From Eledone cirrhosa (Eukaryota), in the NCBI GenBank assembly GCA_964016885.1, contig OZ024742.1, positions 67,084,001 through 67,148,000 on the forward strand: a DNA stretch of 64,000 nt. The letters run 5' to 3'. Each line of letters begins with the position of its first letter. The first letter of the stretch is position 1. Below the pieces are notes generated by a model. That model searched no databases. It worked only from the letters and a program-made list of their open reading frames with translations, and was not told the DNA's origin. This document shows, one piece after another, positions 14,201 to 49,779 of this stretch. The position numbers were made by a program, and so were the translations under genes.

Positions 14201-14269
14201 GTTAGTTTTACTGGTAGTGCAATTTTCTTACTCCCGCAATACCCACCATGCCATTATAATAATGATGAT

Positions 14270-14317
<48 letters not shown>

Positions 14318-16661: not shown

Positions 16662-16662
<1 letters not shown>
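14318..16662 (+). mobile_element. R4/Dong LINE family A, 5'-truncated and disrupted
   Basis: [56 protein letters not shown] (CRVC..ETIDHIISMC), RLE (RHD, RPD, IDMSVP, EKLSKY). (TAA)n on both sides. Confidence 0.93.
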
Positions 16663-16715
<53 letters not shown>

Positions 16716-16729
<14 letters not shown>

Positions 16730-17345
16730 CTGTGGCTCACGTTGTATCCGAGTGTAAACACCTAGCCCAGACTCACTATAGGGGCTGGAACATGATGTGA
16801 TGGGCAGGGTGATCCACTGGCACCTATGCAAAGTAAACAATTTACCACATTCTGAGAAGTGGTATGAGCATAAGCCAGAGGCGGTGATAGAAAACGATCA
16901 GGTGAAGGTGCTGTGGGATTTTAGGATACAGACGGACAAGAAACTGGAACACAATAGACTTGACCTGGTGGTTGTGGACAAAGAAAAAAGATCGTGCCTG
17001 ATTGTGGATGTGGCCTGCCCATTCGACACGAGAGTGCAAGAGGGGGAGAGGGAGAAAATTAACCGATACCAGGACTTAAAGTGGGAGGTAAAAAGGATTT
17101 GGAACTGCCATGAGTCAAAGTGGTCCCGATTGTCATAGGCGCACTAGGTACTATCTCAACAAGTTTCTAGGGATGGTTAAAGAAAATTGGCCCCTTCACG
17201 CTTTTTGGAACGCTTCAAAAGGCATGCTTGCTGGGAACAGCAAGAACCCTCCGAAAAGTCCTCAATATCTGAGGCTGCAGGTAGTGGCTTGATATTCATT
17301 TCAACAAACTTTCCAGTTAACTAACATCAATGACTGAGACTTAAA

Positions 17346-17346
<1 letters not shown>
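16716..17346 (+). mobile_element. R4/Dong LINE family B, 3' fragment
   Basis: RLE region (HDVMGRVIHW, LWDFRIQTDK, IVDVACP, EKINRY) plus family-B 3' UTR, then (TAA)n. Confidence 0.9.
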
Positions 17347-17396
<50 letters not shown>

Positions 17397-17656
17397 TTTC
17401 TTTATTAACCACAAGGGTTTACATAAAGTAGACATTAAGGACAGTGCAGGACAATGCAGGACGGTACAAATGGGCATTTCTGCGTGTAAAAAACAAAAAC
17501 AGAGGATGTAACAAAAATAACAATGAAAATAACAATGAAAAATTCCCCAATAGGGGGGGAGACTTCGGAGGGACATTTGTGGAGAAAGCCCAGTAAAAAG
17601 CCACAATGACCCTGACCACCAAGGCAAGTGCCCTCTCCCAGTTTTCCACCTTTAAT

Positions 17657-20600
17657 TTACAGATATATACTCAGAGTAGGCCCATTCACTCGGGCCATTC
17701 TTGCTTCTCTCACCCATCTTTCAACAAAATGCTGGGAAGAGAGCACTTCCCTCTCTACTCTGATTTTCCTTTTCAAATGAAATTTGAAAAAGTCAATCAG
17801 AGCATCACCGAAGAGGTAAGTGCTCGTCTTCAGCCCTTTCAAACGTGTCCACCATACTATCTCTTTCGCCATGGCCACCAGACAGATAAAAACTGCCTGC
17901 CCTTCCCGGCTAAAGGAGGAGGGCGGGGCAATCCTCACGATAGACTCAGATGATAGCTGGATCCGTCCTAAACGCGACAGCAGGTGTTCGACATAAACCC
18001 ACAAGTCAGCAATTTTCGGACACTGGACGAGTGCGTGCAGGACGGTTTCGTCGCCCTGCGCGCATCTCGGACATGCCCGGCTGACGGCACCTCCATGCCT
18101 GTAGAGTTTATCCCGAACTGGCAAGGCTCCTCGGTAGCACTGCCAGGCCAGAGATTTCTGGAAGTTGTCCATAGGCCCTGGCCCGAAAGTTCTTCCGAAG
18201 AGATTGGCTAGTTGATTTTCGTCGACGCCTAGAGTTTCCCCAAGTACGTCGTCGCTCTTCCCCTCCACTAATCCTCTATAGAACGCCGAGGTGGAGTTTC
18301 CACCGATCACATTGCCCGATTGGTCGAGGGCTGTGAGCGCCTGAAGACATTCCAGTCTCCAGGCGCTCCCTCTCGGTCTTCGCTTGACCCAGGACTGCAG
18401 CTCCGTCAAGGAAACGAGCTGGGGAAAAACGCGTCTAGCAAACGGCGACCACACCTGATCACCGTCGAGGAAGAGGTGGAGATGTCGTAGCCTGAGCGCG
18501 TGCCTGCGCATCATCAGCCACGGCATGCCCAGCCCTCCACGTAGCGGGTGTTGACAACAGATGGACCGCCTGACCATCGGAGCACGTCCCTTCCACAAAA
18601 AGCGAAAGAGCAAACGCTCCAGCGCAGTCAGGCGAGGCTTAGGACAAGGTACGACGGTTAGGCGGTAGCAGATGACAGACGCGATGTACGCGTTAGCCAC
18701 CTCCGCTCGACCTTTCAGGGATAGCTTCCTCTCCGCCCATTTCTGGGTGAGAGAAGCCACCCTGCTCGTCACCTCGTCCCAGTTTTTGTCCGTCTGGAGG
18801 TCCGGACCGAACCAGACCCCTAGCAATTTAACCGGTCCGTCCGTCCAGCGCCCGACGACGCTGTTGGACGGCATGGACCTGCCTCTCCAGGTGCCGAGCT
18901 GCAGGCCCACTGACTTTTCCTGGTTGATCATTGCTCCTGTCACCGCTTCGTATTCTCTTAGTGTAGTGCCGATCGCCTCGATGTGTTTGGCGTTCGACAC
19001 CACTACGGTGACATCGTCCGCATATGCTGACACGGATCTTCCGCATCCTAGTTCGCGCGGGACTCCCCTCAACGTCTCCAGTTTGTGCAGTAATGGCTCG
19101 AGAGTCAATACGTACAAGAGGGACGAGAGGGGACATCCTTGGCGGACCGAGCGCATGATGTTGAACGGTTCCGACAGGTGACCGTTCACTCTCACCACAG
19201 AGCAGATGTCGCTGTGCATGGCAGCGATCCAGCCTCTGAAGACGGGCCCAAAGCCAGCCGCCCTCAGGACTGCCGCTAGGTAACGATGGTCGACCCTATC
19301 GAAAGCTTTCGACTGATCTAAATTGATCAAGGACCCACCCGTGCCAGGTTCCCTAGCTACCCTCTCTACGATGTATCGCATGAGGTGGAGGTTGTCGTGG
19401 ATGGATCTGTCGGGAATGGCGCATGTCTGCGCCTCTCCCACCAGACCACCAACGACAAGCGCCAACCTCTTTGCTAGCACCTTGGCCAAAATCTTAAACT
19501 CTGTGTTTAGCAGAGTTATGGGCCGGAAATTGTCTATGTTATCCCCCTTGTTCGGATCCTTTCTCAGCAGTGCCACCGCTCCTCGGCTCACAGAACTGGG
19601 AATTCTCCCGTTCTGTTGCCAGTTGCAGTAGACGTCCGCCAAGAGGCCTCCAAACAAGTCTGGCATCTGTACGTAAAGTTCATAGGGCAGACCATCCAAA
19701 CCAGGCGATTTACCCCTTGTGCAGCCAGTCATTGCCTCCCGTACTTCAGCGGCTGTTATCGGCTTTTCGCAACACCTGGCCTCAGTGGCCGAGAGCCGCG
19801 GCAGCCCGTCGAGGTAGACACTAAAGTCCATCCCTCTACCCGGCCCCCCGCTGCCCCCGAACAGCTGAGCGAAGTGTCGCTGAAAAGCTTCACACATTTG
19901 CCCGGGATCGAGTAGCATGCGCCCGTCGTGGTCCACCAAAGACCGGATCGTGGCTTTGTTGCCACGACGCGCCTCCGCCACTCGGGCCCATTGAACGGCT
20001 TTCGTCCCCTCGTGTTTGAGAGCACGCACCCTAGCTCTGACAACGCAGCCTTCGTGCTTTGCATTGAAGAATTGGTCAAGGGCCAATTTCGCCGCAAGCA
20101 CGTCGGTCGCAATGCCTTTGCTAAGCGCCTCGTCTAATTTTCTAACTAGTTCTCCCTCTGCTCTATTTTTCTCTATTGCTAAAGCCTTACTAAACCTAAT
20201 CGATTCTATTCTAATCGCTCTTTTCAGAGCAAACCACCACTTGTTGTTGACGATGGCCCCCGTCAACGCCCGCTTAACTAGTTCGCTAATCCGGTCTCTG
20301 TAGGCCTTGCGCGCTGGTAAGGACGCGTTTAGCTTCCAGTAGCCGGGTCCTCGTCTATGAAGCCTATCTAAGTCAAGCACACAGGTCACGAATTTGTGGT
20401 CCGTGTAGCTGACTATCTTGAATTGTGGACAGCCTATGCTAGACCTATCTATTTCTCTACAAAATACTCTATCTAGATATGATCTGGATGACCCTATGCG
20501 GTTTGTCCAAGTCCACATTGGCACATTCGGGAAATCCAATCGGTACCTGTCAGACAGTTCAAAACGCCTGAGCAGGTTGGTGAGGCTCTTGCACCCTCCA

Positions 20601-21076
20601 CCCCTATCCGCTAATCCCACACAGTCCCAGCGTGCATCTAAGATCCCGTTCCAGTCGCCCACTAACACTAAAGAGCGGGACGTTCCAAGAAAGGTCTCCA
20701 GACGCCGGAAGAAATCAGGCCGCCCTGCTCCTGTCGGGGCATAGACGGCCACTAGCCTGAAAGATTGCCCGTCTCCGCTGGTCACGTCCAGCACCACCAG
20801 CTTACCCTCTGGGTCCAGGAAGATGGCCCGTATGGCGAGATCCAAACCTCTCCGAAAAAGTACAGCAACTCCTCCACCGGATCCAGGACGGCTGGGAGAT
20901 GCGTACACATCGTAGCCGCCGAAGATCGGTGCGAAGGCCCGTGCTTCGGAGATTCTGGTCTCGCTGATGGCCACTACATCTATGTTTAGTGACCTGAGGT
21001 CGTTGAGCAGGTGACCCTGCTTCCATGACGACCCCAAGCCACGCGCATTTATGCTGCCTATTCTGAGTGAGGTCAT
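17657..21076 (-). CDS. Tx1 ORF2: APE endonuclease + reverse transcriptase + C-terminal zinc finger (1139 aa)
   Basis: SINARGL, ISETR, VYAP, GDWNG, SYLDRVF, YTDH; SPGLDG, FRPITLLN, DQSKAFDRVDH, RQGCPLS, AYADD; CPRC..ETVLHALVQC. Confidence 0.95.
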   Translation of the reverse strand: MTSLRIGSINARGLGSSWKQGHLLNDLRSLNIDVVAISETRISEARAFAPIFGGYDVYASPSRPGSGGGVAVLFRRGLDLAIRAIFLDPEGKLVVLDVTSGDGQSFRLVAVYAPTGAGRPDFFRRLETFLGTSRSLVLVGDWNGILDARWDCVGLADRGGGCKSLTNLLRRFELSDRYRLDFPNVPMWTWTNRIGSSRSYLDRVFCREIDRSSIGCPQFKIVSYTDHKFVTCVLDLDRLHRRGPGYWKLNASLPARKAYRDRISELVKRALTGAIVNNKWWFALKRAIRIESIRFSKALAIEKNRAEGELVRKLDEALSKGIATDVLAAKLALDQFFNAKHEGCVVRARVRALKHEGTKAVQWARVAEARRGNKATIRSLVDHDGRMLLDPGQMCEAFQRHFAQLFGGSGGPGRGMDFSVYLDGLPRLSATEARCCEKPITAAEVREAMTGCTRGKSPGLDGLPYELYVQMPDLFGGLLADVYCNWQQNGRIPSSVSRGAVALLRKDPNKGDNIDNFRPITLLNTEFKILAKVLAKRLALVVGGLVGEAQTCAIPDRSIHDNLHLMRYIVERVAREPGTGGSLINLDQSKAFDRVDHRYLAAVLRAAGFGPVFRGWIAAMHSDICSVVRVNGHLSEPFNIMRSVRQGCPLSSLLYVLTLEPLLHKLETLRGVPRELGCGRSVSAYADDVTVVVSNAKHIEAIGTTLREYEAVTGAMINQEKSVGLQLGTWRGRSMPSNSVVGRWTDGPVKLLGVWFGPDLQTDKNWDEVTSRVASLTQKWAERKLSLKGRAEVANAYIASVICYRLTVVPCPKPRLTALERLLFRFLWKGRAPMVRRSICCQHPLRGGLGMPWLMMRRHALRLRHLHLFLDGDQVWSPFARRVFPQLVSLTELQSWVKRRPRGSAWRLECLQALTALDQSGNVIGGNSTSAFYRGLVEGKSDDVLGETLGVDENQLANLFGRTFGPGPMDNFQKSLAWQCYRGALPVRDKLYRHGGAVSRACPRCAQGDETVLHALVQCPKIADLWVYVEHLLSRLGRIQLSSESIVRIAPPSSFSREGQAVFICLVAMAKEIVWWTRLKGLKTSTYLFGDALIDFFKFHLKRKIRVEREVLSSQHFVERWVREARMARVNGPTLSIYL

Positions 21077-21111
21077 GTTTAAAATAGAGTGGAAAAGATG
21101 GGAAAGACCAC

Positions 21112-23202
21112 TTACCGTATTTTTGGTAGAGGAGGGATGGTTTTTACATCCCTTTTCACTTGATCGTCTGGTGAAGGGACCGTTGAATCGTCCCTTCGGC
21201 TGGTCGTCGGCTCTTCTAAGAGAATGTCTGAATATACTCTTCGATTAATGGTTCCTCCTAGGTCCCTGAAATCACCAACTGCGTTGGGGAATTTCGTTTT
21301 AATGTTTGTGTATTGTTTCTGTGCTATTTTTAGCAGTCTTATGTTAGTTGGCGTTTTGATTGGTGCTGGTATTATGTAGTCCTGTTGTGAAATGTCTGTG
21401 TGTTCAATTATGTAAGTCATTAGTTTCTTGTTGTGTGTGTTTATTGCCGTGCATTTGTTTTTCTGGGGGTGGGGTGTGGTTCTGCTATTTTCTTGTCGTT
21501 GTTGCTGGGTGTGTGTGTTTTGTTGTTGTGTTTGCGATGTTGGTGCTTGTGGTGTTGAAGGTGTTGTTGGCGGTGGGGTTGTCGCCGGTGGTGATGGTGG
21601 TGCTGGTGTGGGTGGTGATGGTGTTGGTGGTGTTGCTGCTGTGGGTCTCTTTGCAGTAGACTTTACCCTTTTCTCATTTCTTTCCTCCCTTTTCAAAGGC
21701 GACGATGCGCTGCTTCTGCGTTTGTGCCTTCTTGAGACCTTTTGCCATCCCTCTCCCACCTCACACTCCATGTCTGATTCTGTAAGGTCGGGGAGGGGTA
21801 CCAGCTCCACTCTTTCACTTGTTGTTGTTGGTGATGTTTGCACTGGAGTCTCTGTTGCAGCTGCATTTGGTATTGCTGTTGTTGTTGTTAATATTTCCAC
21901 TGCTGCTGCTGTCTTTGATTTCCGTGGAGTGGGTATGGGTGCCACGGACCTATCGTTCCTGGTTGCCGCTTGTCCTGTTGCTGGTAGCCGTGGAACCGGA
22001 TTCGGGAGGAGGGGGGTTTTCTCCTTTCTCAGGGTCTTCTCATTGCAGAAGGCCCTGAGGTGAGTCTTCGATCCACAGCGAAAGCATTTCGGGCGTTTGC
22101 CCTCAACACTTATGGGCAGTTGAGTGCCGTTATCGAAGTCTATCACATCCGGGATAGCTTCGATGCACTCCTGGTTGGTTTGGATTAGCATCTCAATGGA
22201 GGAGCCGACCCAATCTTCTCTTACTTTTTTCTGTACTTGCAGTACAGTTGTTTTGTCCTCGATTCCGACGAGGACAGACGCGGCCAGCCAAGAAGGGGTC
22301 ATTCCGGGGGGGACGTGGGTCAGTTTGACCCTCACAATTTTTTGCCCGCAGTAGGAGGGCACCAACACCATTTCCTCGCTCCTTAGGGTCACTACTGATT
22401 GGGCCTTTGCCTCCTGGGGTGTGGCAAAAAGTACGTCTACGGTGGCGTATTTTTTGCCTCGGGTGATGTGCGTTTTCCTCTGCCACACAGACCCCAAGGC
22501 TTTTTGTATTTGGGCCTCTGTGGCTCTTTCCACCCTACGGGATTTTGTACTTACTGTACGGTACGTGACCGTACAGTGCTCTTGGGTTTCGAAAAAATTT
22601 TTCGCTGCCTTGCAGATTGCTCGGTGTCCGTTCTTTGTCACCATCTTCTTCGCTTCCTCTAATTCCTCATTTGTTATGAGGATTGTTTCCAGGTTTTTCG
22701 CAATACCTGCAAATGAGATTGGTTTTTCTCTGCTGTTGTTGTTGTCGTCAGAGCTGCTGGTACTTTTGTTGTTGCTGCAGGTACTACGACTACTGCCTCC
22801 GCCGCTGTTGCTGTGGTTGTTGTTGGTGTTGCTGCTGCTAATGCTGTTGTTGTTTATGCTGCTGGTGATGCTGTTGCGGCTGCTACTGTTGTTTTCATTG
22901 TCACTGTTGCTGTTGTTATTACGGCTGCTACTGCTATTATTCCTGACGTCAGACGAATGAACTGGGTTTTCGTATTTCCCGCACACCTGTTTCGTCGCTG
23001 TCGTCGTCGTCGTGGAGAAACCTTGCACGCTTTGCACGAGACTTTTCTTTTCTTTCGTCGCTTGCGAAAGAGAAGGGAGGGAGAGAGACACATTTAAAGA
23101 AGGGAGGGAGAGAGACAATCTTCTCTCTGCTGTAGTGATGATTGAGGAAGAAGAAGACGGAATGAGTGGGAGTGACGTATGAAATTTCTTTTTGGTAGCC
23201 AT
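21112..23202 (-). CDS. Tx1 ORF1 nucleic-acid-binding protein with CCHC zinc knuckle
   Basis: Open frame (track start 23235 is TTG; first ATG MATKKK at 23202). CFRCGSKTHLRAFC = CX2CX4HX4C; N/S-rich and P/T-rich low-complexity regions; WQKV basic motif. Confidence 0.85.
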   Translation of the reverse strand: MATKKKFHTSLPLIPSSSSSIITTAERRLSLSLPSLNVSLSLPSLSQATKEKKSLVQSVQGFSTTTTTATKQVCGKYENPVHSSDVRNNSSSSRNNNSNSDNENNSSSRNSITSSINNNSISSSNTNNNHSNSGGGSSRSTCSNNKSTSSSDDNNNSREKPISFAGIAKNLETILITNEELEEAKKMVTKNGHRAICKAAKNFFETQEHCTVTYRTVSTKSRRVERATEAQIQKALGSVWQRKTHITRGKKYATVDVLFATPQEAKAQSVVTLRSEEMVLVPSYCGQKIVRVKLTHVPPGMTPSWLAASVLVGIEDKTTVLQVQKKVREDWVGSSIEMLIQTNQECIEAIPDVIDFDNGTQLPISVEGKRPKCFRCGSKTHLRAFCNEKTLRKEKTPLLPNPVPRLPATGQAATRNDRSVAPIPTPRKSKTAAAVEILTTTTAIPNAAATETPVQTSPTTTSERVELVPLPDLTESDMECEVGEGWQKVSRRHKRRSSASSPLKREERNEKRVKSTAKRPTAATPPTPSPPTPAPPSPPATTPPPTTPSTPQAPTSQTQQQNTHTQQQRQENSRTTPHPQKNKCTAINTHNKKLMTYIIEHTDISQQDYIIPAPIKTPTNIRLLKIAQKQYTNIKTKFPNAVGDFRDLGGTINRRVYSDILLEEPTTSRRDDSTVPSPDDQVKRDVKTIPPLPKIR

Positions 23203-23415
23203 GTTTTTTTGTTTAAAATGAAATTTTGGGTACAAAACCCCAATAACTGGTTATTTAACCCCGAAGGGCCAAATAACGGACAGAAAGACCCCTCTCACGA
23301 GGAGGAGGGTGTCTTTATCAACAATTTGGTTCAAGTTTTAAACAATTTACAATTGTTTTAACGGTTAAAAATTACTATACCTTACAGAGCCGAGCCTCCG
23401 TCAACCATGGCATTC

Positions 23416-23457
<42 letters not shown>

Positions 23458-25525
23458 CAATTGACGGAATCAAGGGTAATGATGTTACCAACTATAGACC
23501 TATCACATGTCTGTCCGTAATGTGGAAACTGTTGACAAGCATTATGTCTGAGGAAATCTACCATCACCTCCAGACAAACAACTTGTTACCGGACGAACAG
23601 AAATGATGCCGAATGAAGTCCCGTGGTACAAAGGACCAGTTACTTATTGATAAGATGGTAATGAGGAATTGCAAGAGGAGACACACTGGTCTTGCCATGG
23701 GATGGATAGACTACAACAAGGCATTTGACATGGTGCCTCATTCTTGGATCACCAAAAGCCTAGAGATCTTCAAGGTGGCAGATAACATCAGACAGTTGTT
23801 GGGCAAAAGTATGAAGTCCTGGAAAACAGAGTTAACATCAGCTGGAGAATCCTTGGGAAGCGTGAAGATCAAGAGAGGTATCTTCCAGGGAGATAGTCTG
23901 TCCCCTTTGTTGGTAGACCATGCCCTGATGCCCCTGACCATTATACTGCGAAAAGTGAGAGCAGGATACTAGTTGGGAAAGGGAGAGCTTACCATCAATC
24001 ACCTACTCTTCATGGACGATCTTAAGCTCTTCGGGAAGAGTGAGAAGGAGTTGGATGTATTTGTTGAAACTGTCCGTATTTTCAGCAATGATATATGTAT
24101 GCAATTTGGTATTAGTAAGTGTGGAGTCCTTGTGATGAAGAGGGGTAAATTGAGCAGAAGCAACGAAATCCAGGTACCAACAGGTGAGATGATAAAGGAA
24201 ATTGACACTGAAGAAGGATACAAGTATTTGGGTGTTCTGGAGGCTGATGACATCAAGAACAAAAAAATGAAGGAATTGATAAGATCTGAATACATTCGGA
24301 GAGTAAGGAGCGTATTAAAGTCACACCAGAACAGTAGGAATGCCATAAGTGCAGTAAATTCCCGAGCTGTGTCTATTATTAGGTACAGTGCGGAAATTCT
24401 GAGATGGAATGTTGCTGAACAAAAAGAAATGGATATGAAAACTAGGAAGCTATTCACTATCTACAACATGTTCCAAAAGTGGAGTGATGTCGATAGACTC
24501 TACTTAAGGAGATCTGAAGGTGGAAGAGGTCTTATCAGCATAGAGGACTGTGTTCAGATGGAGAAAAACAACCTATACAAATACGTGACCTATAGTAAGG
24601 AGCCAATGCTCAGAACTGTACTGAAGGAGGGGACAGTAGGCCAGGGGATGTCCAAGGAGGAAATAACATCAAGGAGGAAGAGCAGCCTTAAGGGAAAATC
24701 CCTTCATAGTACCTTCTTTGTGAAAACTGAATTCAGAGATCCACAGACATGGAACTGGTTGAAAAGAGGAGACCTTAAAAAGGCTACAGAAGGAATGCCA
24801 ATGGCTGCGCAAGAGCAGGCCCTCAAAACGAAGTGGTTGAAACACCATATTTACAAGGAGGAGGCTAGCCCACTGTTCAGGATCTGTGGAGAGAGAGAGG
24901 AGTATGTGGCTCACATTGTATCCGAGTGTAAACACCTAGCCCAGACTCATTATAAGCGCTGGAGACATGATGTGATGGGCAGGGTGACATACAGGCACCT
25001 ATGCAAAGTAAACAATTTACCACATTCTCAGAAGTGGGATGAGCATAATCCAGAGTCGGTGATAGAAAACGATCGGGTGAAGGTGCTGTGGGATTTTAGG
25101 ATACAGACGGACAATAAACTGGAACACAATAGATCTGACCTGGTTGTTTTGGACAAGGAAAAAAGATCGTGCCTGATTGTGGATGTGGCCTGCCCATTCG
25201 ACACGAGAGTGCAAGAGAAGGAGAAGGAGAAAATTAACCGATACCAGGACTTAAAGTGGGAGATAAACAGGATTTGGAACTGCCATGAAGTCAAAGTGGT
25301 CTCGATTGTCATAGGCGCACTAGGTACTATCTCAAAAAGTTTCCAGGGATGGTTAAAGAAAATTGGCCCCGCCATGCTTTTTGGAACGCTTCAAAAGGCA
25401 TGCTTGCTGGGAACAGCAAGAACCCTCCGATACGTCCTGAATATCTGAGGCTACAGGTAGTGGCTTGATATTCATTTCAACAAACTTTCCAGTTAACTAA
25501 CATCAATGACTGAAACTCAAAGAAC
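23458..25525 (+). mobile_element. R4/Dong family B, 5'-truncated, few stops
   Basis: ORFs 23613-23972 and 23973-25448: [28 protein letters not shown]; 3' UTR, then (TAA)n(GAA)n. Confidence 0.93.
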
Positions 25526-25609
<84 letters not shown>

Positions 25610-25630
25610 AAGAAGAAGAATAGTAATAAT

Positions 25631-26037
25631 GGCCAATAAATTAGAACACAATAGGCCTGACCTGGTGGCTTTGGAAAAGGAAAAATGATCTTGCCTGATT
25701 GTAGATATAGCCTGCCCATTTGACACGAGAAGGAGAGGGAGAAAATTAACCGATACCAGGACTTAAAGTGGGAGGTAAAAAGGATTTGGAACTGCCATAA
25801 AATCAAGATCGTCCCGATTGTCATAGGCGCACTAGGTACTATCTGAAAGAGTCTGCAAGGATGGTTAAAGAAGATTAGTCCAGCCCCGCTTTTTGGAACA
25901 CTTCAAAAGGCATGCTTGCTGGGAACAGCAAGAACCCTCCGATACGTCCTGAATATCTGAGGCTACAGGTAGTGGCTTGATATTCATTTCAACAAACTTT
26001 CCAGTTAACTAACATCAATGACTGAGACTCAAAAAAC
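25631..26037 (+). mobile_element. R4/Dong family B short 3' fragment
   Basis: HNRPDLV..DIACP region plus 3' UTR, then (TAA)n. Confidence 0.9.
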
Positions 26038-26042
26038 AATGG

Positions 26043-26124
<82 letters not shown>

Positions 26125-26869
26125 TTAATAATCCAATAACAATAATTTTTGAAATTCGTGCAAAGTAATATGGGTAGGGAACTGTCTATAAAACCAACCT
26201 CACTAACCTTTTTTTACTTATTTAAAACAACTGTGATAGAATAATTCTTATTACAAATGAAATATAATATTACAGTTTTGGCTCTCAGAAAGCGACAGCG
26301 CATCACATTACGGCATAGGGCCCCAATATTTAATATTTAATTTTGGATCAGAAATGTTATAGTCGAAAAAGAGAAAAATGGCTAAGTGGACAGACAGGCA
26401 AATAATTTCACCCCTAACACCACCACCGCCACCATCACCACTACCACACCAAAAACTCTAGTCAAGTTACCTCAACTTCTATTTCTACTTCAACTTCAAA
26501 ACCATCACTACAGTACTACGATCACATCACCACCACCACTGCCTCATTATCGCTACCGGCGCTATTCTCTCCCACTATCTCCTGCTAAGACAGGCATCGT
26601 AGTATTCCCACTAAATGAGGAAGGCATCAAAAGATATAAATAGACTGTTTTTGATGACCCGGTCAAAAAATCAAAAAGTCCAAAATCAAATCAAAACAAC
26701 ACAGCAGCAACGAAAAACGTAAAGAAAAAAGAAAAGAAAAACAAACAGATAGATAGATAAGAAAAAAAACTAAGTCAGACATTCAAACATTACATTACAA
26801 TGAAACTTATGCTTATTTTTTTTTTTGGGGGGGGGGGGGGGGTACCTATTTGTTTGTTTGTTTATTTAT

Positions 26870-29801
26870 GTTCGTCTACAGCGCCACGTAAAATTACCGG
26901 AGGTGATGAAATCACCGGTGGCTATGTAACCATACATTCACCAATCCTCGATAAGAGTGTTTAAATGTCGAACCTAACCAGTTCGAATAACAGTGAAGTG
27001 GAGACTGGAATATCATGTGACAGACTCTCACCCAGCAGGTGCTCTCTGGCTCAGCAGCAGGGACCTGGCTGTCAACCAAATACTCCTGGTGTCGGAGGAA
27101 GAAGAAGAGGAAAGGGACCAGAACCAACTGTCGAAAGAATTGAATAGAACTGTTATGCAATGTTGCCTGAAGAGTAACCCCAAGGAAAAAGGCTATAGGG
27201 AACGGATGCATAACATCTGGAACGAGATTGGTCTATTTAAATTAGATGAACAAAAAATGGCTGGGCAGGCTCTGGTAATAAGAACTAATGGGTGGATAAG
27301 CGAGCTGGAACTGGAGGAACTGAGCAGAGAGATTAGGTTGGAAATGGAGAGTGGAGTATGCCAGGCAATCGAGCCAGTGGGAAATGAAGGTGAAAAGGTT
27401 GAGAGAACGGAGGAACCATCCGAAGAAGACAATGATCTGAATGCTGAAATAAATAATACCTGGAAAAAAGATACGGCCATTGAGGAGATGAATGCTGACG
27501 GGCTATGACAAGATTTGGTTGATATCCTAAACTTAGTGGTAGATGAAATGAATAATGATAGTGGGAAACCTATGAACCTAAGATTTGTAGACAGGAAAAA
27601 GTTAAAAGAAACAAAGTCATCCCATACCTTGAGGCGAGGAGCCTTCACCAGTGCAACAATAGCCTCAAAGCAACAGCAAATGCGGTGATGAAATTACTTG
27701 GTATAAAAGCGAGAGGAAACAACAAACAGGAAAGATCAGAACCTTGGTGGAAGAAACGACTGAATGGTCAAATCAAGGAAATGAGAAATGACATTGGAAA
27801 GCTTGAGTCCCTACTAAATGGGACACTAAAAATGATAGACACTAAAAATAGACTGGAAATAAAGTACAAAACTAGGAGGAAAAAGCTAAATATTATCATA
27901 GAGGAACTGAAGCAACGCATTGTAGCAAAGAGTCAGTCAATATAGACAGAACCGAATGTTTGATAACAACAACAAGATGTTGTTTGGACAGCTTGAAGGG
28001 AAAGAAAGGGGCAACGACTTGATCCCTGAGGCGGAACAAACTAAGACATACTGGTGAGGAATATGGGAGCAGGATGTTAAACATAATAACCAGGCAGTGT
28101 GGATTGAGACAGTACAAAAGGAGATAAGTGAACAGGCACACCAACAAACAGATTTGAGTATCACAGTTGAAACTCTTAAGGGGCAGGCTAAAAAACTAAC
28201 CAACTGGAAATAACCAGGCCCAGATGGTTTGCAGGGGTTTTGGATTAAAAATATAACATCCCTCCACCCGAAACTGACAACCATGTTCAATGACTACTTG
28301 ATGTCAGGTGAGGTACCAGAGTGGTTGACAAAAGGTACACAGTTCTGGTAATGAAAGACCGAATCAAGAGTAATGATGTTACCAACTATAGACCTATCAC
28401 ATGTCTGTTCGTAATGCGGAAACTGTTGACAAGCATTGTGTCTGACGAAATCTACCTTCACCTCCACACAGACATATTGTTACCGGACGAACAGAAATGA
28501 TGCCGAAAGAAGTCCCGTGGTACAAAGAACCAGTTACTTATTGATAAGATGGTAATGAGGAATTACAGGAGGAGACACACTGGTCTTGCCATGGGATGGA
28601 TAGACTACAAAAAGACATTCGACATGGTGCTTCATTCTTGGATAAGCAAAAGCCTAGAGATCTTCAAGGTGGCAGATAACATCAGAGAATTGTTGAGGAA
28701 AAGTATGAAGTCCTAGAAAACAGAGTTAACATCGGGCGGAGAATCCTTGGGAGGTGTGAAGATCAAGTGAAGTATCTTTCAGGGAGATAGTTTTCTCTGT
28801 TTTTTTTCCTTGCCCTGATCACCCTGACCATTATACTGCGAAAAGTGTGAGCAGGATACAAGTTGGGAATGGGAGAGCTTACCATCAATCACCTACTCTT
28901 CATGGACGATCTTAATCTCTTCGGAAAGAGTGAGGAGTTGGATGTGCTTATTGACACTGTCCATATTTTCAGCAATGATATATGTATACAATTTGGTATT
29001 AGTAAGTGTGGAGTACTTGTTATGAAGAGGGGTTAACTGAGCAGAAGCAACGGAATCTAGGTACCAACAGATGAGATGATAAAGGAAATTGAGACTGAAG
29101 AAGCATACAAATATTTAGGTGTTCTGGAGGCTGATAACATCAAGAACAAAAAAAATGAAGGAATTGATAAAATCTGAAAACATTCGGAGAATAAGGAGCG
29201 TATTAAAGTCACATCAAGTGCAGTAAATTCCCGAGCAGTGTCTATTATTACGTACAGTGCGGGAATTCTGAGATGGAATGTTGCTGAACAAAAAGAAATG
29301 GATAGGAAACTAGGAAGCTATTGACTATCTACAACGTGTTCCACAAGAGGAGTGAAGGTGCTGTGGGTTTTAAGGATACAGACGGACAAGAATCTGGAAA
29401 ACAATAGCCCTGACCTGGTGGTTTTGGACAAGGAAAAAAGATCGTGCCTGATTGTAGATGTAGCCTGTCCATTCCACACGAGAGTACAAGAGAAGGTGAG
29501 GGAGAAAATTAATCGATACCAGGACTTAAAGTGGGTGGTAAAAAGGATTTGGAACTGCCATGAGGTCAAAGTGGTCCCGATTGTCATAGGCGCACTAGGT
29601 ACTATCTCAAAGAGTTTCCAAGGATAGTTAAAGAAAATTAGTCCAGCCCCGCTTTTTGGAACAGTTCAAAAGGCATGCTTGCTGGGAATAGCAAGAACCC
29701 TCCGATACGTCCTGGATATCTAAGGCTGCGGGTAGTGGCTCTATATTCATTTCAACAAACTTTCCAGTTAAAATAACATCAATGACTGAAACTCAAAGAA
29801 C
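26870..29801 (+). mobile_element. R4/Dong family B, near full-length 5' end, decayed, internal deletion
   Basis: R4-type N-terminus (ELNRTVMQC..GYRERMHNIW..EQKM), PWWKKRL, RT motifs with many stops. About 0.6 kb is missing at 29352-29355 relative to the 23458 copy, at a GTGA microhomology. Confidence 0.9.
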
Positions 29802-29879
<78 letters not shown>

Positions 29880-29909
29880 AAGAAGAAGAAGAAGAATAAT
29901 AGTAATAAT

Positions 29910-30316
29910 GGCCAATAAATTAGAACACAATAGGCCTGACCTGGTGGCTTTGGAAAAGGAAAAATGATCTTGCCTGATTGTAGATATAGCCTGCCCATTT
30001 GACACGAGAAGGAGAGGGAGAAAATTAACCGATACCAGGACTTAAAGTGGGAGGTAAAAAGGATTTGGAACTGCCATAAAATCAAGATCGTCCCGATTGT
30101 CATAGGCGCACTAGGTACTATCTGAAAGAGTCTGCAAGGATGGTTAAAGAAGATTAGTCCAGCCCCGCTTTTTGGAACACTTCAAAAGGCATGCTTGCTG
30201 GGAACAGCAAGAACCCTCCGGTACGTCCTGAATATCTGAGGCTGCAGGTAGCGGCTTGATATTCATTTCAACAAACTTTCCAGTTAAATAACATGAATGA
30301 CTGAGGCACAAATAAC
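29910..30316 (+). mobile_element. R4/Dong family B short 3' fragment
   Basis: Coding part essentially identical to 25631-25941. Confidence 0.9.
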
Positions 30317-30331
30317 AATAATAATAATAAT

Positions 30332-30518
30332 TGTTTCTACTTTTGGCACAAGGCCAGCAATTATCCAATGCATTACTGGTACTTTATTCTATCGACACCG
30401 GAAGGATGAAAGGCAAAGTTAACCTCGGCGGGATTTGAACTGAGATCATACAGGGAGGTAACTCTATGCTTCAAAGCATGGCATCTGACCCTCTACCGAT
30501 ACTGCCAATCCACCGCCT
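30332..30518 (-). mobile_element. tRNA-derived SINE with Nin-type core
   Basis: A box TGGCAGTATCGG, B box AGTTCAAATCCC, core GCCGAGGTTAACTTTGCCTTTCATCCTT, tail TGGCCTTGTGCCAAAAGTAGAAACA; (ATT)n on both sides. Confidence 0.9.
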
Positions 30519-30537
30519 TAATAATAATAATAATAAT

Positions 30538-30729
30538 TGTTTCTACTTTTGGCACAAGGCCATCAATTATTCCAGTGCATTACTGGTACTTTATTTTATC
30601 GACCCCGTAAGGATGAAAGGCAAAGTTAACCTCGGCGGAATTTGAACTCAAACCGTAAAGGGACGTAACTATGATGGAAAGCATGGCGTCCGACTCTCTA
30701 CTGATACTTCCAATCCACCACCCACTGCC
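30538..30729 (-). mobile_element. second tandem SINE copy
   Basis: Same head, core and tail; flanked by ATT repeats. Confidence 0.9.
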
Positions 30730-30739
30730 AAATAATAAT

Positions 30740-33700
30740 GATTTTAATTATTGGTCACAAGGGCCGACATATAAGGGACAATACAAAAGACTGTGACAGT
30801 AGGGATTTACATATACAACGTGTAAACAATGATAACAATAACAAATTAACAAGAAAAATACAACAGGAAAAATTCCCCAATAGGGGCGATGACCACCCAG
30901 GGTTCACTCAGGTACCCCACCGAACCTGAACGACTCGACGCTTCGAGAGCACCCGGGAAGGGCACCCCTCCTCAAATTTAGCCACCTACAGGCGCATAAT
31001 CAGAATTGGCCCACTCAGACGGTCCAATCTCGCCACATTCACCCACCTTTCAGCAAATGTACTGGGGGGCAGCACTTCTCTCTCCACCCTCACCTTCCTT
31101 TCCAAGTGAAACTTCAAAAAGTTGATGAGGAATTGGCCGTAGAGAAAAGAATCTGTCTTCAGTCCTTTCAACATAGTCCACCATACAACCTCTTTCGCTA
31201 CTGCCACCAGACACAGGAAAAATGCCTGCTCTTCCTGGACAAAAGAAGGCGGCGGGCCGACCTTCACTATGGACTCGGCCAATAGCAGGATCCGTTATAC
31301 ACGCGACAACAGCTGTTCGACATAACTCCACAAGTCAGTAATGCACTGACACTGGATGAGTGCGTGCAGAACGGATTCGTCGCTCTGCTCTTGAGCAGGT
31401 CATTCTGACAGCACTTCCGTGCGTGTAGAGTTTATCTCGAACCGGTAGTGCACCCCGGTATCACTGCCAAGCGAGGAATTTTTAGAAATTACCCATCGTC
31501 CCCGGCTCAAAAGTCCTCCGAAAGAGACTGCTTAGTTCGACTTCGTCGATGCCCGGAGCGTCTCCGAGTGCGTGTTCGCACTTGCTCACCACTAGTCCTC
31601 TATAGAAGACGAGAGTGGAAGTTCCACTGACCGCATTGCCCGCCTGGTAGAAGGCAGTGAGTGCTTGCAACATTCCAGATACCAGTCACCCAGTTTCTGT
31701 CTGTTCTTGACCCAGGACTGCAGCTCAGTCAATGAGACGAGCTGCGGAAAGGCCTGTCTGACAAACGGCGACCACACTTGTTCACCGTTTAGGCAGAATA
31801 TCTGGAGTTGCCGCAGCCTCAGGGCGTGTTTGCGCATCATTACCACGGCATGCCCAGCCTTCCGCCTAGAGGGTTCTGGCAGCATATGGACTGCCTCCCC
31901 AACGGAACCTGATACCTCCACAAGAATTTGAAGTTGAGCCGTTCCAAGTTGGCGAGGCGCAAACGGGGACAAGGGACGACGGTCAGGAGGTAGTAGATGA
32001 CGGACGCGATGTATGCGTTCGGTACCTCCGCCTGAGCTTTCAGTGATAGCTTCCTCGCAGTCCATTTCTGGGTGAGACTGGCTACCCAGCCCGTCACCCC
32101 GTCCCTATCATCATCCACCTGGCCCTAACCAAACCCCGATCTACTTTACCGGTCCGTCCATTCAGCGCCCAACGACGCTGTTGGATTGGCATGGACTAGC
32201 CTCTCCATGTGCCGATATGCAAGCCCACCGACTTTTCTGGGTTAAGTTTTTTTCCCGTGAATCTTTCATATTCCTCCAATAAGTAGCCGACCACCTCGAT
32301 TTCTGAGGTGTCCGACACCATCACGGTGATGTGGTCTGCATAAGCCGACACGGCCTTTCTGCTTCCTGGCTTGAACGTGATGCCCTGCAACAGCTCCATC
32401 TTCCGCAGTAAAGGCTCGAAAGTCAATACGTTCAGAAGGGAGGAGAAAGGGTACCCTTGACGGACCGATCGGGAGATCTGAAACGGTTCCGAGAGGTGGA
32501 AATTAACTTTGACCACCGAGCACATGCGGCTGTGCATTGCACTGATCAAGCTTCTGAAGACTGGGCCGAAGCCAGCTGCCTTGAGGACAGCTTCCAGGTA
32601 CCGATGGTCGACCCTATAGAATGCTTTCGATTGATCTAAATTGATAAAAGCCCCACGGAAGCCAGGTTTACACCCTACTCTCTTTATGATGTACCACATG
32701 AGTTGTAGGTTGTCGTGTATGGACCTGGTTGGTATTGCTTAAGTTTGCACCTCTCTAACCAAAACCTCTACATGTGCCCACCTCTTCGCTAGCACCTTGG
32801 CCAAAATCTTAAACTCTTTGTTGAGCAGAGTTATGGGCCCGAAATTGTCTAATGTGTCCCTCTTTTTCTCGTATTTCCTTATCAGCGTCACTACGCCCCG
32901 GCTAACAGAACTGGGAATACTACTGTTCTGCTGCCAGTTGCAGTAGAGCGCTTCGACGAGATCGGAGAACAAGTCTGGCATATTTACGTAAAGCTCGCAG
33001 GGCAGACCATCCAAACCGGGGGACTTGCGCCTAATGCAGCCGACAAGGCCATCCTGAATCTCGAATGAAGTAATCGACCTTTCGCAGCGCTCAGCGTCGG
33101 CCGTTGAGAGTTGCGGTAAGCCATCCAGGTAGGGACTGATTTCCGCCACCTTCTCTGACCCGCCACTTCCCCGAACAACCGGCCAAAATGTTGGCGAAAG
33201 GCTTCACACATCTGCTTGGAAGCATTCAGCTCGTGTCCGTCTCGGTCCGTCAAAGACCGAGTCGTGGTTTTATTACCACGCTGCGCCTCTGCCACGCGGG
33301 CCCATTGAACGGCTTTGGTTCCCTCGTTTCTCAGAGCACGCGCCTTAGCTCTGACAGTGCAACCTTTGTGTTTCGCATTGAAGAAATGATCTAATGCCAT
33401 TCTCGCCGCTAGCACGCCAGTTGTAATGCCACTAACAATAGCCTCGTCTAACTTATCTACCAAATCCCCCTCCTTTCTATTTTTCTCTAACGCTACTTCT
33501 TTGCTAAACTCTATTAACATTACTCTAAGCTCTCTTTTGAGAGCCCCCCACCATCTATTGTTGACGACTCCCACAGTCAACTTTTTCTTAACTAAGTTTT
33601 AAAACGTGGACAGATTACACTATTTCTGTCTATTTTCCTAACCAATATCCTGTCTATATACAATCTAGATGATCATATGCGGTTGGTCCAGGTCGACACT

Positions 33701-36562: not shown

Positions 36563-37196
36563 AATAATAATAATAAGGATGAGGATGATGATGATGATGA
36601 TATCGGCGTTGATGCCGATAATGATCATCATAATATTCCACTTCTTAATGAGGTTTCTGGAGAAATAATGAAGAAATATCTAATTATGGAGAAATTCCTT
36701 CCATTCATTGCGATACGTTTTTCGGGAACATACAACTCTCCACTCACCGAAGAATGATTCTTATTTCTTATTTGTCAGATCGATATTTTGTTAGGAAGAT
36801 GTATGAATGAAATGTGTTACAGGGCTTCTGACTATGAGACTTTAGCGGCTGTTTGGGCGGATAACTGTGTGTGTGTATTTAAAAAAATGTAAATATCTAG
36901 GTCTATAGGTGAGTATGTGTCCTGTAAGATATGTAGACATATACTGGTATGTGTTTGTGAGTGTATTTATACAAGTGCATACACAAATGAGGTGTATGTA
37001 TATGCATATGTTTTTCATATGCATGTATATATGGATACGAAGAATGTATACATATGCTTAAAACTAATATAGTAATGCCATTGTATGTATACACACAAGT
37101 ACGCACACACACGCACATATATATACATATGTATATATATGTATATATATATGTATATATATATGTGTGTGTGTGTATGTGTATATATATATATAT

Positions 37197-37239
<43 letters not shown>

Positions 37240-37298
37240 TACACATATATATATTTATACAATGATATTAAATAAATGAAAACTATATAAACCATATT

Positions 37299-37359
37299 TA
37301 TTCTATTATATATATTTCAAGGGTGCCAAAACTTTGGTACGCTTTCATCAGATAAAATA
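37299..37359 (-). ncRNA. type I hammerhead ribozyme
   Basis: - strand TATTTTAT-CTGATGA-AAGCGTACC(AAAGTTTT)GGCACCCTT-GAAA-TATATA-TA^ATAGAATA. 8-bp stem I, intact core, palindromic stem III, 2 mismatches in stem II. Confidence 0.8.
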
Positions 37360-38124
37360 TAAAGATTGGTTAATAAATTTTGACATAACCAAGAAAAGAT
37401 ACCTTAACGGTTCACGTTTTCCTTGGATAGTGAAGGGATAAGAGAAGAGAAGTTAGATATTTTAAATGAGTAAGATGAGTATGCAAATGAGTTTGAGGTA
37501 TAGGGCTGAACAAAAAACGTTATTTTAGACGCTATGGAGAATTTAAATAATTAGGATATGTGTATGTATACGTAGGAAAGATGAAAAAAGAAGAATAGCT
37601 TGTATTTATGTTAATTTGGGGGAATGGTGGAATATGATTCCAGAGTTTCAATTTATTTAGCTATATTATAAGTTATAATATTGTATATATAATCAATGGA
37701 TTTATGAAGAATTATGGTTGTAAGTATTTTTATCTTATTACATTAAAATAGGTTATATGTATATAAATATCTATATAGATTAATAATTGTGAATGTATAA
37801 GTATTATAGAAATAGAAATAATAATTTACAATTATTAATTGTTTATATTTCTAATATGAGTTACGAAGGATTTGATTTTGTATTTTACATAAAAAAATAG
37901 GTGATTCAAGTTGTGAGAGGAGAACAATTTGTAGATTCGAATATTTTGTTCCAACATTGAAAATGTTTTCAAAATATTGTTAATTTAGCGAAGTTTATCG
38001 TACATATTATATTATGTTTATGTTTGCACGATTGAAAATGGAAAGGTAACTCCAATATTGTTTGTTAACCGTTAAATTTGATGAATGATTTACTCAGAAA
38101 ATATATAATTATTTCGAGTGGCGC

Positions 38125-38455
38125 GGATACCATTTGACAATTGCATGGCTCCACCGATTATCAGTGAATCGTACGACATGTCAAGCATATCTGAATTTGT
38201 TCAGACTGTACTCGGCGATAACGTTCTTCACGTCTGTACTTTCCTTGAGCTGCTCCTTTCGGATATTACCTCTTAAGGAGATAGCCAGCATCGAGCTTCC
38301 CACGCTCTTTGTTCAGTCAACTACAGTTCCTCTCCCTTTGAGAACCGCCCATATTTCATTGGTAGTACAACCTTGATGTTGAAGAGTGTACAAGTGGCTT
38401 TATCGAGGGTTGCTTTCAGCACATCCCTCACTCAGTTGAACGCCCTTCCAGGCTG
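38125..38455 (-). mobile_element. RTE-clade LINE relic
   Basis: Decayed LFN..VL..YG and MLAISL..E.LK..TDVKNVI..KFRYA.HVVRFTDNRWS. Confidence 0.55.
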
Positions 38456-39847
38456 ATGATATATGTGATATCCATACTAATACAATTCCCATTTCATATC
38501 TCTTTGTTTTTGTATGTGTGTATATGTGTAGTGTTTGTGTGTGTGTGTGTGTATGTGTGTGTATGTGTGTGTGTGTGTGTGTGATTTTGTACGTATGTTT
38601 GTGTTTGTTCGTGTATGAATTTAACTATGCGTCGCTTTACTTGTGCATAGGCCTTGTATGTATGTGTCTACTTAAATTCACATAAAAAATTCGATCACAC
38701 ATCTCCTTACCTCGCCTTTTTCCATTGAACAAAAATCATTCGCGTAAACTAATCAAAATGACTCGTATTCATATCATTATTAATTGTAAAGAAGTATTCA
38801 TAAAATACATAAGTGCTGGTATAAATTCTAAAAATACATCCGCCAACCAGATGAAATCATTTTTAAAATATGAAAGAAAATTTGAATATAAAAATTTGCT
38901 AAATTTGGGAATTTTGAGAATATTAAAGAAAATAATTGAACAGAAATTTTTGGGAAAGGAAGCATAATATTGTTTCCATGAATTCTAATTCAGTATTAGT
39001 ATTCTCAAGATGATAAGTTAATAAAATAACATTTTTTTATGTTTTTAATTGTCTCTCAAGAATAATTTCCATCTTACACATAATTCTCTCTTTAAAACTA
39101 ACATGATGACCATCTACGTCATCATCATTCCTACCATCGCAATCATCTTCAGTTTCTATTCCTCATCCAGCAATATTAGCACTACTAGTACCACTACAGA
39201 TACACTAAGCATTAACTACCATTAATACTATTAATACTGCGAATTAATACCATATAACACGAAACACTATTGCCTCTAATATCTCCACAAATTGCGTCGA
39301 CCTTATTAAATGTTTCACCTGCTCATTCACCACTTTTGCCGCATTATTCTAACTAGCAGATAAACCAAACTTCCGGTTGTTTTCTGCTAGCATGTGTAGT
39401 GTGCATATTGATATTATAAACAAATATATATGCATGTATATATGATAGGTCAAATGAAATCCTAATTATCAATATGCACAGAAATTGAACGAAATCTGTG
39501 TTACACTCTCTACTGTAATCACTAAACCATGATATATTATAAAAAGACTATATTATATATATAAGCTGTATATAAAATGAACTAAAATATTATGAAAAGG
39601 AAAAAGGAAAAAATTAGTTAACGAAATAAAAACCTTATATGACGATGCAAACATATGAAGGTTTATATAAGAGATGTGCTAAGTATTATAATATAACAGA
39701 CTCTAACCGTAGTGTTGGCATTTGAAAATTTTAAAGAAGTGAATCTTGAAATAAGCAATATTTTATTTATAAGATTATTTATGTTTAAGCGAGAGCAGCG
39801 AAATTTAGTATATACATTACATAATATCCATTCATTATTTATTCAAA

Positions 39848-40036
39848 ATGGCGGTGGATTGGCAGTATCGGTAGAGGGTCGGACGCCATGCTTTGACGCA
39901 TAGATTTACGGCCCTTGCCATTCTGAGTTCAAATCCTGCCGAGGTTAGCTTTGCCTTTCATCCTAACGCAGTCGATAAAATAAAGTACCAGTAATACACT
40001 GGGAAGATTGCTGGCCTTGTGCCAAAAGTAGAAACA
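39848..40036 (+). mobile_element. SINE copy with 14-bp target-site duplication
   Basis: Same family as 30332; ATTATTTATTCAAA at 39834-39847 and 40037-40050. Confidence 0.92.
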
Positions 40037-40729
40037 ATTATTTATTCAAAGTAATTCAACTTATTTTACTAACGGAATAAAAAATATATAAAACGGACGC
40101 TATCCCGCACCCCTGCCTTTACTATATTATAGATGGTAATGATCATCATTATTATACACAAACCAATCAACATTAGTACCGTTATCATTAACGTGGTTAT
40201 CGTCATTATCATCATCATCATCGTCATCATCATCATCATATTCCTCATCATAATCATATTCATCATCATCGTCAACACCATCAACATAAGTCATTATTAT
40301 TATCGTCATCATCAATATCATCAACATCAACTTCATCATCCTCGTTGTACCCCTGCTCATTTTCTCCCCCTCTTGATCACCGCCATCAACACCATTATAA
40401 AATTCACATAAAATTCTTGCCGAAAAAGAATGTATGTTCCATATTAAAGTCAGAGACTGTCGCTGTTTTCACCCAGTGTATTATTCTCTTTCTTTTGTAT
40501 CTTGGTTAATTTTCATCGGTGTCTTATTCTTCACTTTATAAATGTCATATGGTTTATGTCATGATTCTGCATAGTGTATATCTAGTTCACTAACATTAAG
40601 AGACAGAATTCTACGAACAATTTTCATATAAGCCGATTATTGCCAATCCATTGAAGCTTTGTGACGGGAAATCTCAAAAATGCAAGGTTTTATAAGCAAC
40701 TATTTGTTTATGAATAACAATAAGAATAA

Positions 40730-48860: not shown

Positions 48861-49078
48861 TGGTTTCTGATTTAGGCACTCGGCCAACAATTTTGGGGCA
48901 GAGTAAAGTCGATTAAATCGACCCCAGAGCATTACTGGTACTTTATTTTATCGAGCGCATAATGATGAAAAGCAAAGCGAAAATCGGCAGGATTTAAACT
49001 GAGATCATAAATGACCGTATCTCTGGGCCATAAAGCTTGTTGTCGGACGCTACGCTGATGTTGCCAATCCACAGCCCT
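48861..49078 (-). mobile_element. older, diverged SINE copy of the same superfamily
   Basis: CATTACTGGTACTTTATTTTATCGA..GATGAAAAGCAAAG..GATTTAAACTGAG matches the SINE core. Confidence 0.75.
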
Positions 49079-49779
49079 ATATCACTCGATAATATTGAAT
49101 TATATCACATTACATTAAATTACTGTACACTATGATAAAACATTCGACATCATACCGCGTCATATATAACAATTCTATCAACGCAAACTCCATGGTTCTA
49201 ATCACACAACGCTACTAAAATCTAAATCATGTCAACATGACATTTACAATAAAACACATTTTATTGTGACGTATTAACAAGCTTTATGACAAAGAATAAT
49301 TTTATGAAACAAAAGGATTTTTTTTAACTTGCGCAACAATCATGTACGTGAAAATTGGGTTACAAATACATGTAATTTTCTAAAGATCATCTTTGACATA
49401 TATGAAACCAATGATTATCTACATACATATATACACACGCACGCACAGACGCACTCATTTATAAGCAGAGAGAGAGCAAGTTCGCATTGTATAAATATCA
49501 ACACAGTATACTGTAAGACCATCATAGTGGATGATGGGATATATACGATCTTCTGAAACAACTGTAATATAAATACTACAATAATAGCAAAAACACAACT
49601 AAACAATAAAGCATATAGAAGCGAAGCCACCAGCAGCTGCAACCTCAACAATCAAAACCATTACTTCAACAAATACTATTATAGCCCTGTTAACAAACTG
49701 CTTTCACGCCAGCACCTCCAGTACCACCACCAAATCAAGAACAAAAACCACCACAAGCAACATCATAGCAACAACCACA

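Follow-up and report, generated by a model that had tools for sequence, protein, structure and literature searches.

The locus analysed here, 64,000 nucleotides (nt) of the octopus Eledone cirrhosa (assembly GCA_964016885.1, contig OZ024742.1, positions 67,084,001 to 67,148,000; hereafter the window), raises the question of which long interspersed nuclear element (LINE) mobilises an abundant short interspersed nuclear element (SINE) that ends, like two LINEs beside it, in a small hairpin followed by ATT. LINEs of the L1 clade are the textbook 'relaxed' type, reading poly(A), as mammalian L1 does; eel UnaL2 is reportedly a stringent LINE, recognising a 3' stem-loop that it shares with its partner UnaSINE. 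A first-pass annotation of the window proposed that the SINE is moved by a microsatellite-targeting LINE of the Tx1 clade. Our analysis suggests that the SINE is probably mobilised, through its hairpin, by the ORF2 protein (ORF2p) of an ATT-targeting Tx1-like LINE. An ATT-targeting Tx1 partner is well supported by the hairpin, the start of the target, the length of the target duplications and the tails; the SINE, however, is not specific for microsatellites.

Tx1-1 (17395..23415, minus strand) is a full-length, young Tx1-like LINE with both open reading frames (ORFs) open, lying between (ATT)16 on its 3' side (17347..17394) and (ATT)14 on its 5' side (23416..23457). Its 3' end is 98-100 % identical to the 40 best genomic matches, and its 5' end 100 % identical to the 40 best. 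ORF2 (17660..21073, minus strand; 1138 residues) contains an APE endonuclease, a reverse transcriptase and zf-RVT (Pfam PF03372, PF00078 and PF13966); its best solved relative is human L1 ORF2p (E 1.7e-52, against 1.2e-21 for R2) and its closest named protein is from Argonauta hians (73 %). Judged by its APE, reverse transcriptase and C-terminal zinc-binding domains, with L1 as the nearest solved reverse transcriptase, ORF2 belongs to the L1 clade. No named Tx1 reference was present among the protein matches to ORF2, and the Tx1 label of the LINEs described here is a putative one drawn from architecture. ORF1 (21115..23202, minus strand; 696 residues) gave no match in a Pfam search; a CX2CX4HX4C knuckle is visible in its translation, and an ORF1 with a CCHC knuckle is a feature of the Tx1 clade. 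Tx1-2 (30740..about 36562, minus strand) is a decayed, apparently full-length copy of an older ATT family, with ATT runs on both sides. Short-form copies of the SINE are found at 30332..30517 and 30538..30724 (both minus strand) and at 39848..40036 (plus strand), and a fourth copy, overlooked in the first-pass annotation, belongs to an older, long form, and its loop is decayed (48861..49079, minus strand).

The five 3' ends on which the proposal was built were all found where it had placed them, with CTTGT loops at 17411-17415, 30348-30352, 30554-30558 and 30757-30761 (minus strand) and at 40016-40020 (plus strand), and a search of the whole window found ATTATT downstream of CTTGT at these five sites only. 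The hairpin is AACC-CTTGT-GGTT in Tx1-1 (17407..17419, minus strand; the ATT run begins 12 nt on) and TGGC-CTTGT-GCCA in the plus-strand SINE (40012-40024); those of the other two short SINE copies lie at 30344-30356 and 30550-30562. In Tx1-2 (30753-30765, minus strand) one pair of the stem is broken by decay, the commonest form of the family being GGCC-CTTGT-GGCC (15 of 30 loci). The distance from stem to ATT had been given as identical throughout, which was not borne out: it is 12, 13 and 12 nt in Tx1-1, Tx1-2 and the SINE, respectively. All ends do face ATT in the sense of the element itself, although only the SINE ending at 40036 is a plus-strand element, the other four lying on the minus strand.

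Beyond the window, the SINE and the Tx1-like families have in common a 3' hairpin with a CUNGU loop, closed by a C-G pair and located some 12-13 nt upstream of the insertion point. A fixed-step sample of 80 stretches, 800 kb in total, was scanned with a sequence-tolerant description of the hairpin followed by A-rich DNA; the 73 matches comprised 64 SINE copies, 6 Tx1 ends and 3 others at chance level, and five local shuffles gave 0-4 matches each. Exact tail patterns occur genome-wide 150,743 times for the SINE (24 nt) and 18,808 and 3,656 times for two further patterns, with no match for the reversed controls. Conservation of the hairpin among Tx1 copies, whose absence would have spoken against the proposed pairing, was seen in 26 of 30 loci that had been chosen by their zf-RVT domain, independently of the tail (one further hairpin was partial and three loci had none). 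Among the Tx1 C-termini in the fixed-step sample, six of eight are followed by the hairpin (one of them decayed) and the other two end before the tail. AACC-CTTGT-GGTT is present in all 29 Tx1-1 loci listed out of 30, these loci having been chosen by their tails; a count of 152 hairpins in 154 Tx1 ends is mostly circular, since most of the loci were fetched by the tail, and is not used here.

Of the 4-bp stem described in the first pass, three inner pairs proved constant, whereas the outer pair of the SINE is often broken. Of the 91 SINE tails sampled from the 800 kb, 52 have T-A and 38 have T.T at the outer position, and the constant stem of the SINE is therefore 3 bp. In a hand-picked set of 15 mutually related representatives (12 Tx1 and 3 SINE), all 45 cells of the three inner pairs are paired, with C-G in Tx1 as against G-C in the SINE at pair 2, and G-C replaced by A-U in Tx1-1 at pair 3; the same three pairs are predicted by RNAalifold. 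The covariation score is 0.388, compared with 0.136 for shuffled alignments (none of 500 reached the observed value) and at most 0.105 for slid ones, although the rows are related and hand-chosen, so that the shuffle count is to be read as support and not as a probability. The stem-loop thus described is conserved over three pairs, with two compensatory changes, as would be expected of a stringent LINE-SINE pair. Contigs of sequencing runs filed under other organism codes that cover the SINE and the Tx1-2 tail yielded no usable stem variants.

A hairpin that is conserved need not be read by the reverse transcriptase. Tx1 could be the helper in a relaxed, L1-like manner, with read-through AUUA annealing to the nicked target and the hairpin carried along as baggage or acting, together with the LINE's AATAAA, in 3' end processing. 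The Tx1 tails do have AATAAA directly after the stem, the hairpin is thermodynamically weak, and RNA end and target are both rich in ATT. However, the SINE has no AATAAA at this position and nevertheless keeps the loop, the stem and the spacing across forms of about 2-13 % divergence; the stem covaries between families; and the short SINE form has lost sequence upstream of the hairpin and retained the hairpin itself. On this evidence an unread hairpin seems improbable, and recognition of the hairpin remains the explanation that we favour.

The SINE is a short, high-copy, non-coding element with target duplications, present in about 340,000 copies as extrapolated from the 91 tails in 800 kb. 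Two forms of about 183 and 212 nt are seen, the short one being without about 27 nt upstream of the hairpin while retaining the last 30 nt or so. An A-box-like motif was recognised in three of three window copies and a B-box motif in two of three (the copy at 30332 has both), and for the SINE head ARAGORN found no tRNA and Rfam no tRNA match. As an abundant octopus SINE with an RNA polymerase III head it is like OR1/OR2, the octopus CORE-SINEs; the body may also resemble theirs, and the SINE itself may well be known already, possibly as one of these two. In the long form, for example at 48861-49079, the segment that is missing from the short form contains another small inverted repeat (GTCGA...TCGAC). 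Older copies with the same body and a different, longer, pyrimidine-rich tail were observed at L095, L136, L022 and L045 (locus numbers of this analysis) and probably reflect a tail swap with another LINE partner. At L045:7808-8010 a SINE copy has the tail CCTTGTGGTT followed by A-rich DNA, Tx1-1-like, and is possibly a SINE-LINE chimera or a product of decay.

The insertion sites connect the SINE to the ATT-targeting elements more closely. The ATT bias that the first pass expected of the SINE sites is pronounced: ATTA directly follows 132,470 of the 150,743 exact SINE tails, against a background of 0.65 % of positions. Target duplications were found in 27 of 48 full-length SINE copies (78 of 2,256, or 3.5 %, in a mismatched-flank control); they are 10-22 nt long, 26 of 27 start with ATTA and 15 of 27 are preceded by C. 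Given this start, the ATTA derives from the target. The window provides an example in the SINE ending at 40036, whose perfect 14-nt duplication (39834..39847 on the left and 40037-40050 on the right, plus strand) starts with ATTA, is preceded by C and lies in a non-repetitive site that is not a microsatellite. Target-primed reverse transcription would also yield truncated copies with duplications, and such copies are present, the shortest having 31 nt between the duplications.

For the Tx1 elements, 19 of 62 ends with the 5' boundary inside the locus have a duplication; 11 of these start with ATT and belong to the ATT lineage (8-20 nt, the lengths being ambiguous inside pure runs), six, all six of those from a sister lineage, start with TAT after a C, and two start elsewhere. 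The 5' ends of Tx1-1 abut (ATT)6-25 in 30 of 30 loci, nine of which come from one tandem array. The target preference that is a trait of the Tx1 clade is thus present in both lineages, at (ATT)6-25 in one and between C and TAT in the other. The array is a head-to-tail series of nine Tx1-1 5' ends at G000:C1:441,098,224-441,143,085 (L250-L258), mostly spaced by about 6 kb, and most of its units share one interrupted ATT spacer, which suggests tandem amplification and not repeated insertion. Separately, some Tx1-2 copies (L065, L240, L242 and L304) end in (AAT)n instead of ATT, pointing to priming on the opposite strand or to junction slippage.

The sister lineage was recognised in the fixed-step sample as further Tx1 families whose hairpins combine a GCC/GGC stem with a CTTGT, CTAGT or CTGGT loop and whose 3' ends run into repeats of TATC or AT. 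They form a single clade with support 1.0, the one grouping used from a Tx1 tree whose root is distorted by truncated copies. As the hairpin occurs in both lineages, it marks the whole sampled Tx1 group and not a single pair, and it is the target, not the tail, that assigns the SINE to the ATT branch. The pattern WATMT, describing the sites of the sister lineage, follows 1,847 SINE tails, and ATCT was seen in none of 100 among the matches listed. The TATC/AT lineage (L038:6244-6296, L050:2340-2400, L105, L113, L117 and L127), inserted between C and TATC or at AT repeats, is the commoner of the two in the fixed-step sample; it was not seen to carry a SINE passenger.

Shared landing sites might by themselves bring the SINE and Tx1 together. 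In the window the order is Tx1-2, SINE, SINE and then the AAT tail of an opposite-strand Dong-like LINE 3' end (29910..30310, plus strand), which is the landing pad of this nest; similarly, the (ATT)16 next to Tx1-1 doubles as the (TAA)n tail of a plus-strand Dong-like element. Dong-like elements ending in (TAA)n could therefore be proposed to move the SINE, its clustering with Tx1 being due to common AAT landing pads. Dong-like tails adjoin SINE/Tx1 nests both in the window and in L087, and Dong-R4 is among the recently active elements of Octopus vulgaris (PMC13282606). Nevertheless, the Dong-like end on its own strand, (TAA)n, is the opposite of the ATTA of the SINE, Dong-like tails align with the SINE tail at z of at most 0.4, and most SINE sites are not microsatellites, so that this possibility is largely refuted and seems very remote beside mobilisation by an ATT-targeting Tx1.

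The tails were then compared directly. With the last 32 nt of the short SINE form, five of six Tx1 tails aligned at z 3.9-5.5, and with those of the long form all six did so at z 3.0-5.3, whereas none of six other LINE tails matched (z at most 1.1); a better fit to another LINE clade, which would have spoken against the first-pass pairing, was thus not found among the six sampled non-Tx1 tails. The 3' tail is therefore shared, although the similarity is short and modest and extends to the Tx1 group as a whole. The tails of Dong-like, RTE-like and CR1-like elements, and that of another LINE, are unlike the SINE tail, and these elements were set aside as donors; the labels are putative ones based on protein motifs, and a single CR1-like end was seen.

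Divergence within the families gives a rough chronology. The median is 7.1 % for the short SINE form (n=39), with subgroups at 2.5 % and 5.0 %, and 13.5 % for the long form (n=9), which is the older; the values are 2.8 % for Tx1-2 (17 of 30 loci kept) and 3.4 % for Tx1-1 (9 of 12 kept), sets that were picked by exact tails and hence look younger than the families are.

Several results weigh against mobilisation of the SINE by an ATT-targeting Tx1 through the hairpin. The fold stability of five ends is no better than that of shuffles (z from -1.85 to +1.03), and the outer pair is intact in 8 of the 15 representatives and unpaired in 7. The same hairpin is found in the sister lineage that inserts at TATC/AT repeats, and the best matches of the short SINE are two tails of that lineage, so that tail similarity is not specific for ATT families. 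The strictness of the target differs, with Tx1-1 in (ATT)n runs and the SINE at short ATTA sites: at least four ATT units were present in only 3 of 27 reconstructed empty SINE sites. The ages of the SINE and Tx1 overlap only partly, in samples that are small and biased towards young copies, and among the families measured no ATT family matching the long SINE form in age was demonstrated. No Tx1 family with the GGC/GCC stem of the SINE was found (0 matches in one search and 1 of 16 in another). Of the Tx1 tails, that of Tx1-1 matches the short SINE least well (z 1.6), and an ATT family such as Tx1-2, or a relative outside the sample, is therefore a more likely helper than Tx1-1; Tx1-2-like families fit the role better than the young Tx1-1.

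Carried further, the tail could have come from Tx1 while the true helper, unsampled or extinct, was a LINE family with the same stem as the SINE, to which the ATT families described here are only related. The two unsuccessful searches for a GGC/GCC-stem family would agree with this, as would the age of the long SINE form, older than the measured ATT families; moreover, the unbiased sampling covers 800 kb and each search scores the best candidates alone. Against it, the sampled non-Tx1 tails are unlike that of the SINE, the younger SINE subgroups (2.5-5 %) overlap Tx1-2 in age, and an exact stem may not be needed, as stem swaps are tolerated in L2 (PMC4176376). We consider such a helper unlikely, slightly more so than a hairpin that goes unread, and return to an ATT-targeting Tx1 of the kind sampled here.

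In the mechanism that we propose, the SINE would have acquired its tail of about 30 nt from a Tx1-like LINE, and the ORF2p of an ATT-lineage family would bind the CUUGU loop on the SINE RNA and mobilise it in trans. Such binding is modelled on zebrafish L2, which reads the loop and tolerates stem swaps (PMC4176376). The endonuclease would nick immediately before ATTA, after any nucleotide and often after C, and reverse transcription would begin at a constant distance of 12-13 nt beyond the stem, and such a start would give precise ends without poly(A). Labour may be divided, with a single loop code shared by all the Tx1 families here and the choice between ATTA and TATC made by the endonuclease. 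We lean, with some reserve, towards a still wider interpretation: this would be an animal L1-clade lineage with stringent RNA recognition, in which the 13-nt hairpin acts as template signal and ruler for the whole Tx1 radiation, the endonuclease alone switches the target between ATTA and TATC, and a SINE of about 340,000 copies has captured the signal and rides the ATT branch only.

Tail-sharing LINE-SINE pairs are common in other clades and rare in the L1 clade, with three in the survey of Ohshima 2012 (PMC3472496). Those known in the L1 clade include maize ZmSINE2/3 and sorghum SINEs with LINE1-1_ZM, and Chlamydomonas SINEX-3_CR with L1-1_CR (PMC3472496, PMC3747384). The algal pair ends in poly(A), like almost all flowering-plant L1-clade LINEs surveyed (PMC3472496), whereas here the group is an animal, Tx1-like one, without poly(A), with a fixed ATTA target and with two sister lineages that have one loop and different targets. 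The one SINE-Tx1 link found in the literature searched is that of crocodilian SINEU and Tx1-Mar, where target preference, used here as well, and overlapping age assign the SINE to Tx1 (PMC4494074). SINEU elements, however, have small nuclear RNA heads and poly(A) tails, and no LINE with the 3' end of SINEU-1 was found, unlike the present case in which both tail and target are shared. Kibi, at (TC)n, and Koshi, at (TTC)n, are microsatellite-specific Tx1 families (PMC4494074), and Tx1-1 is likewise flanked by (ATT)n on both sides and found in tandem arrays; the unit here is ATT or TATC, and neither a SINE passenger nor a tail hairpin is mentioned for Kibi or Koshi in the text available. In zebrafish ZfL2-1/2, recognition of a 3' stem-loop, specific for the loop and tolerant of the stem, was demonstrated experimentally (PMC4176376; 'TX1' in that paper is the name of a mutant). 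In comparison with these and UnaL2, which belong to the L2 clade and where recognition is an experimental result, the present case concerns the L1 clade, a stem of 3-4 bp and a candidate recognition.

The octopus OR1/OR2 tRNA-derived CORE-SINEs are named without a partner LINE in the available text of PMC4758252, PMC4824008 and PMC5804259, and a 2026 annotation of Octopus vulgaris describes active L1-Tx1 and SINE families, with no pairing of them in the text at hand (PMC13282606). Tx1 is likewise unmentioned in the accessible parts of PMC11481361, on bivalve SINE partners, and of PMC4824008 and PMC5804259. Neither an octopus SINE paired with Tx1 nor a 3' hairpin in Tx1 is described in the papers found, with Repbase, Dfam, SINEBase and older SINE papers outside the comparison, any of which could already hold the SINE or the pair. 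The pairing of the SINE with Tx1 is likely, and it would name the likely engine of a major octopod SINE. Should the wider interpretation given above hold, this would be the earliest record of a Tx1-SINE pair that shares its tail, as well as a minimal template module with a site preference. If an animal Tx1 does depend on the hairpin, the idea of stringent ancestors of L1 could also be put to the test, with elements that are young and intact. The sister lineages, alike in loop and unlike in target, serve as a natural control by which the choice of template can be told apart from that of target, and they raise the question of why the SINE avoids the TATC lineage although that lineage carries the same loop.

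Other repeats accompany these elements. Several putatively Dong-like LINEs on the plus strand lie in the window at 14256-17346, 23458-26146 and 29384-30310, separated by (AAT)n, and Tx1 and the SINE have landed in their tails in the opposite orientation. Elsewhere, a tandem LINE at L181 (minus strand, near 2-5 kb), distant to the Dong-like protein and ending in (CATA)n, is another microsatellite-associated element. An ORF pair in the window at 2498-4174 (minus strand) is putatively Penelope-like. At 54947-56720 of the window, tandem repeats of 95 nt and 69 nt surround an ORF fragment (55689-56261) that is putatively helicase-like.

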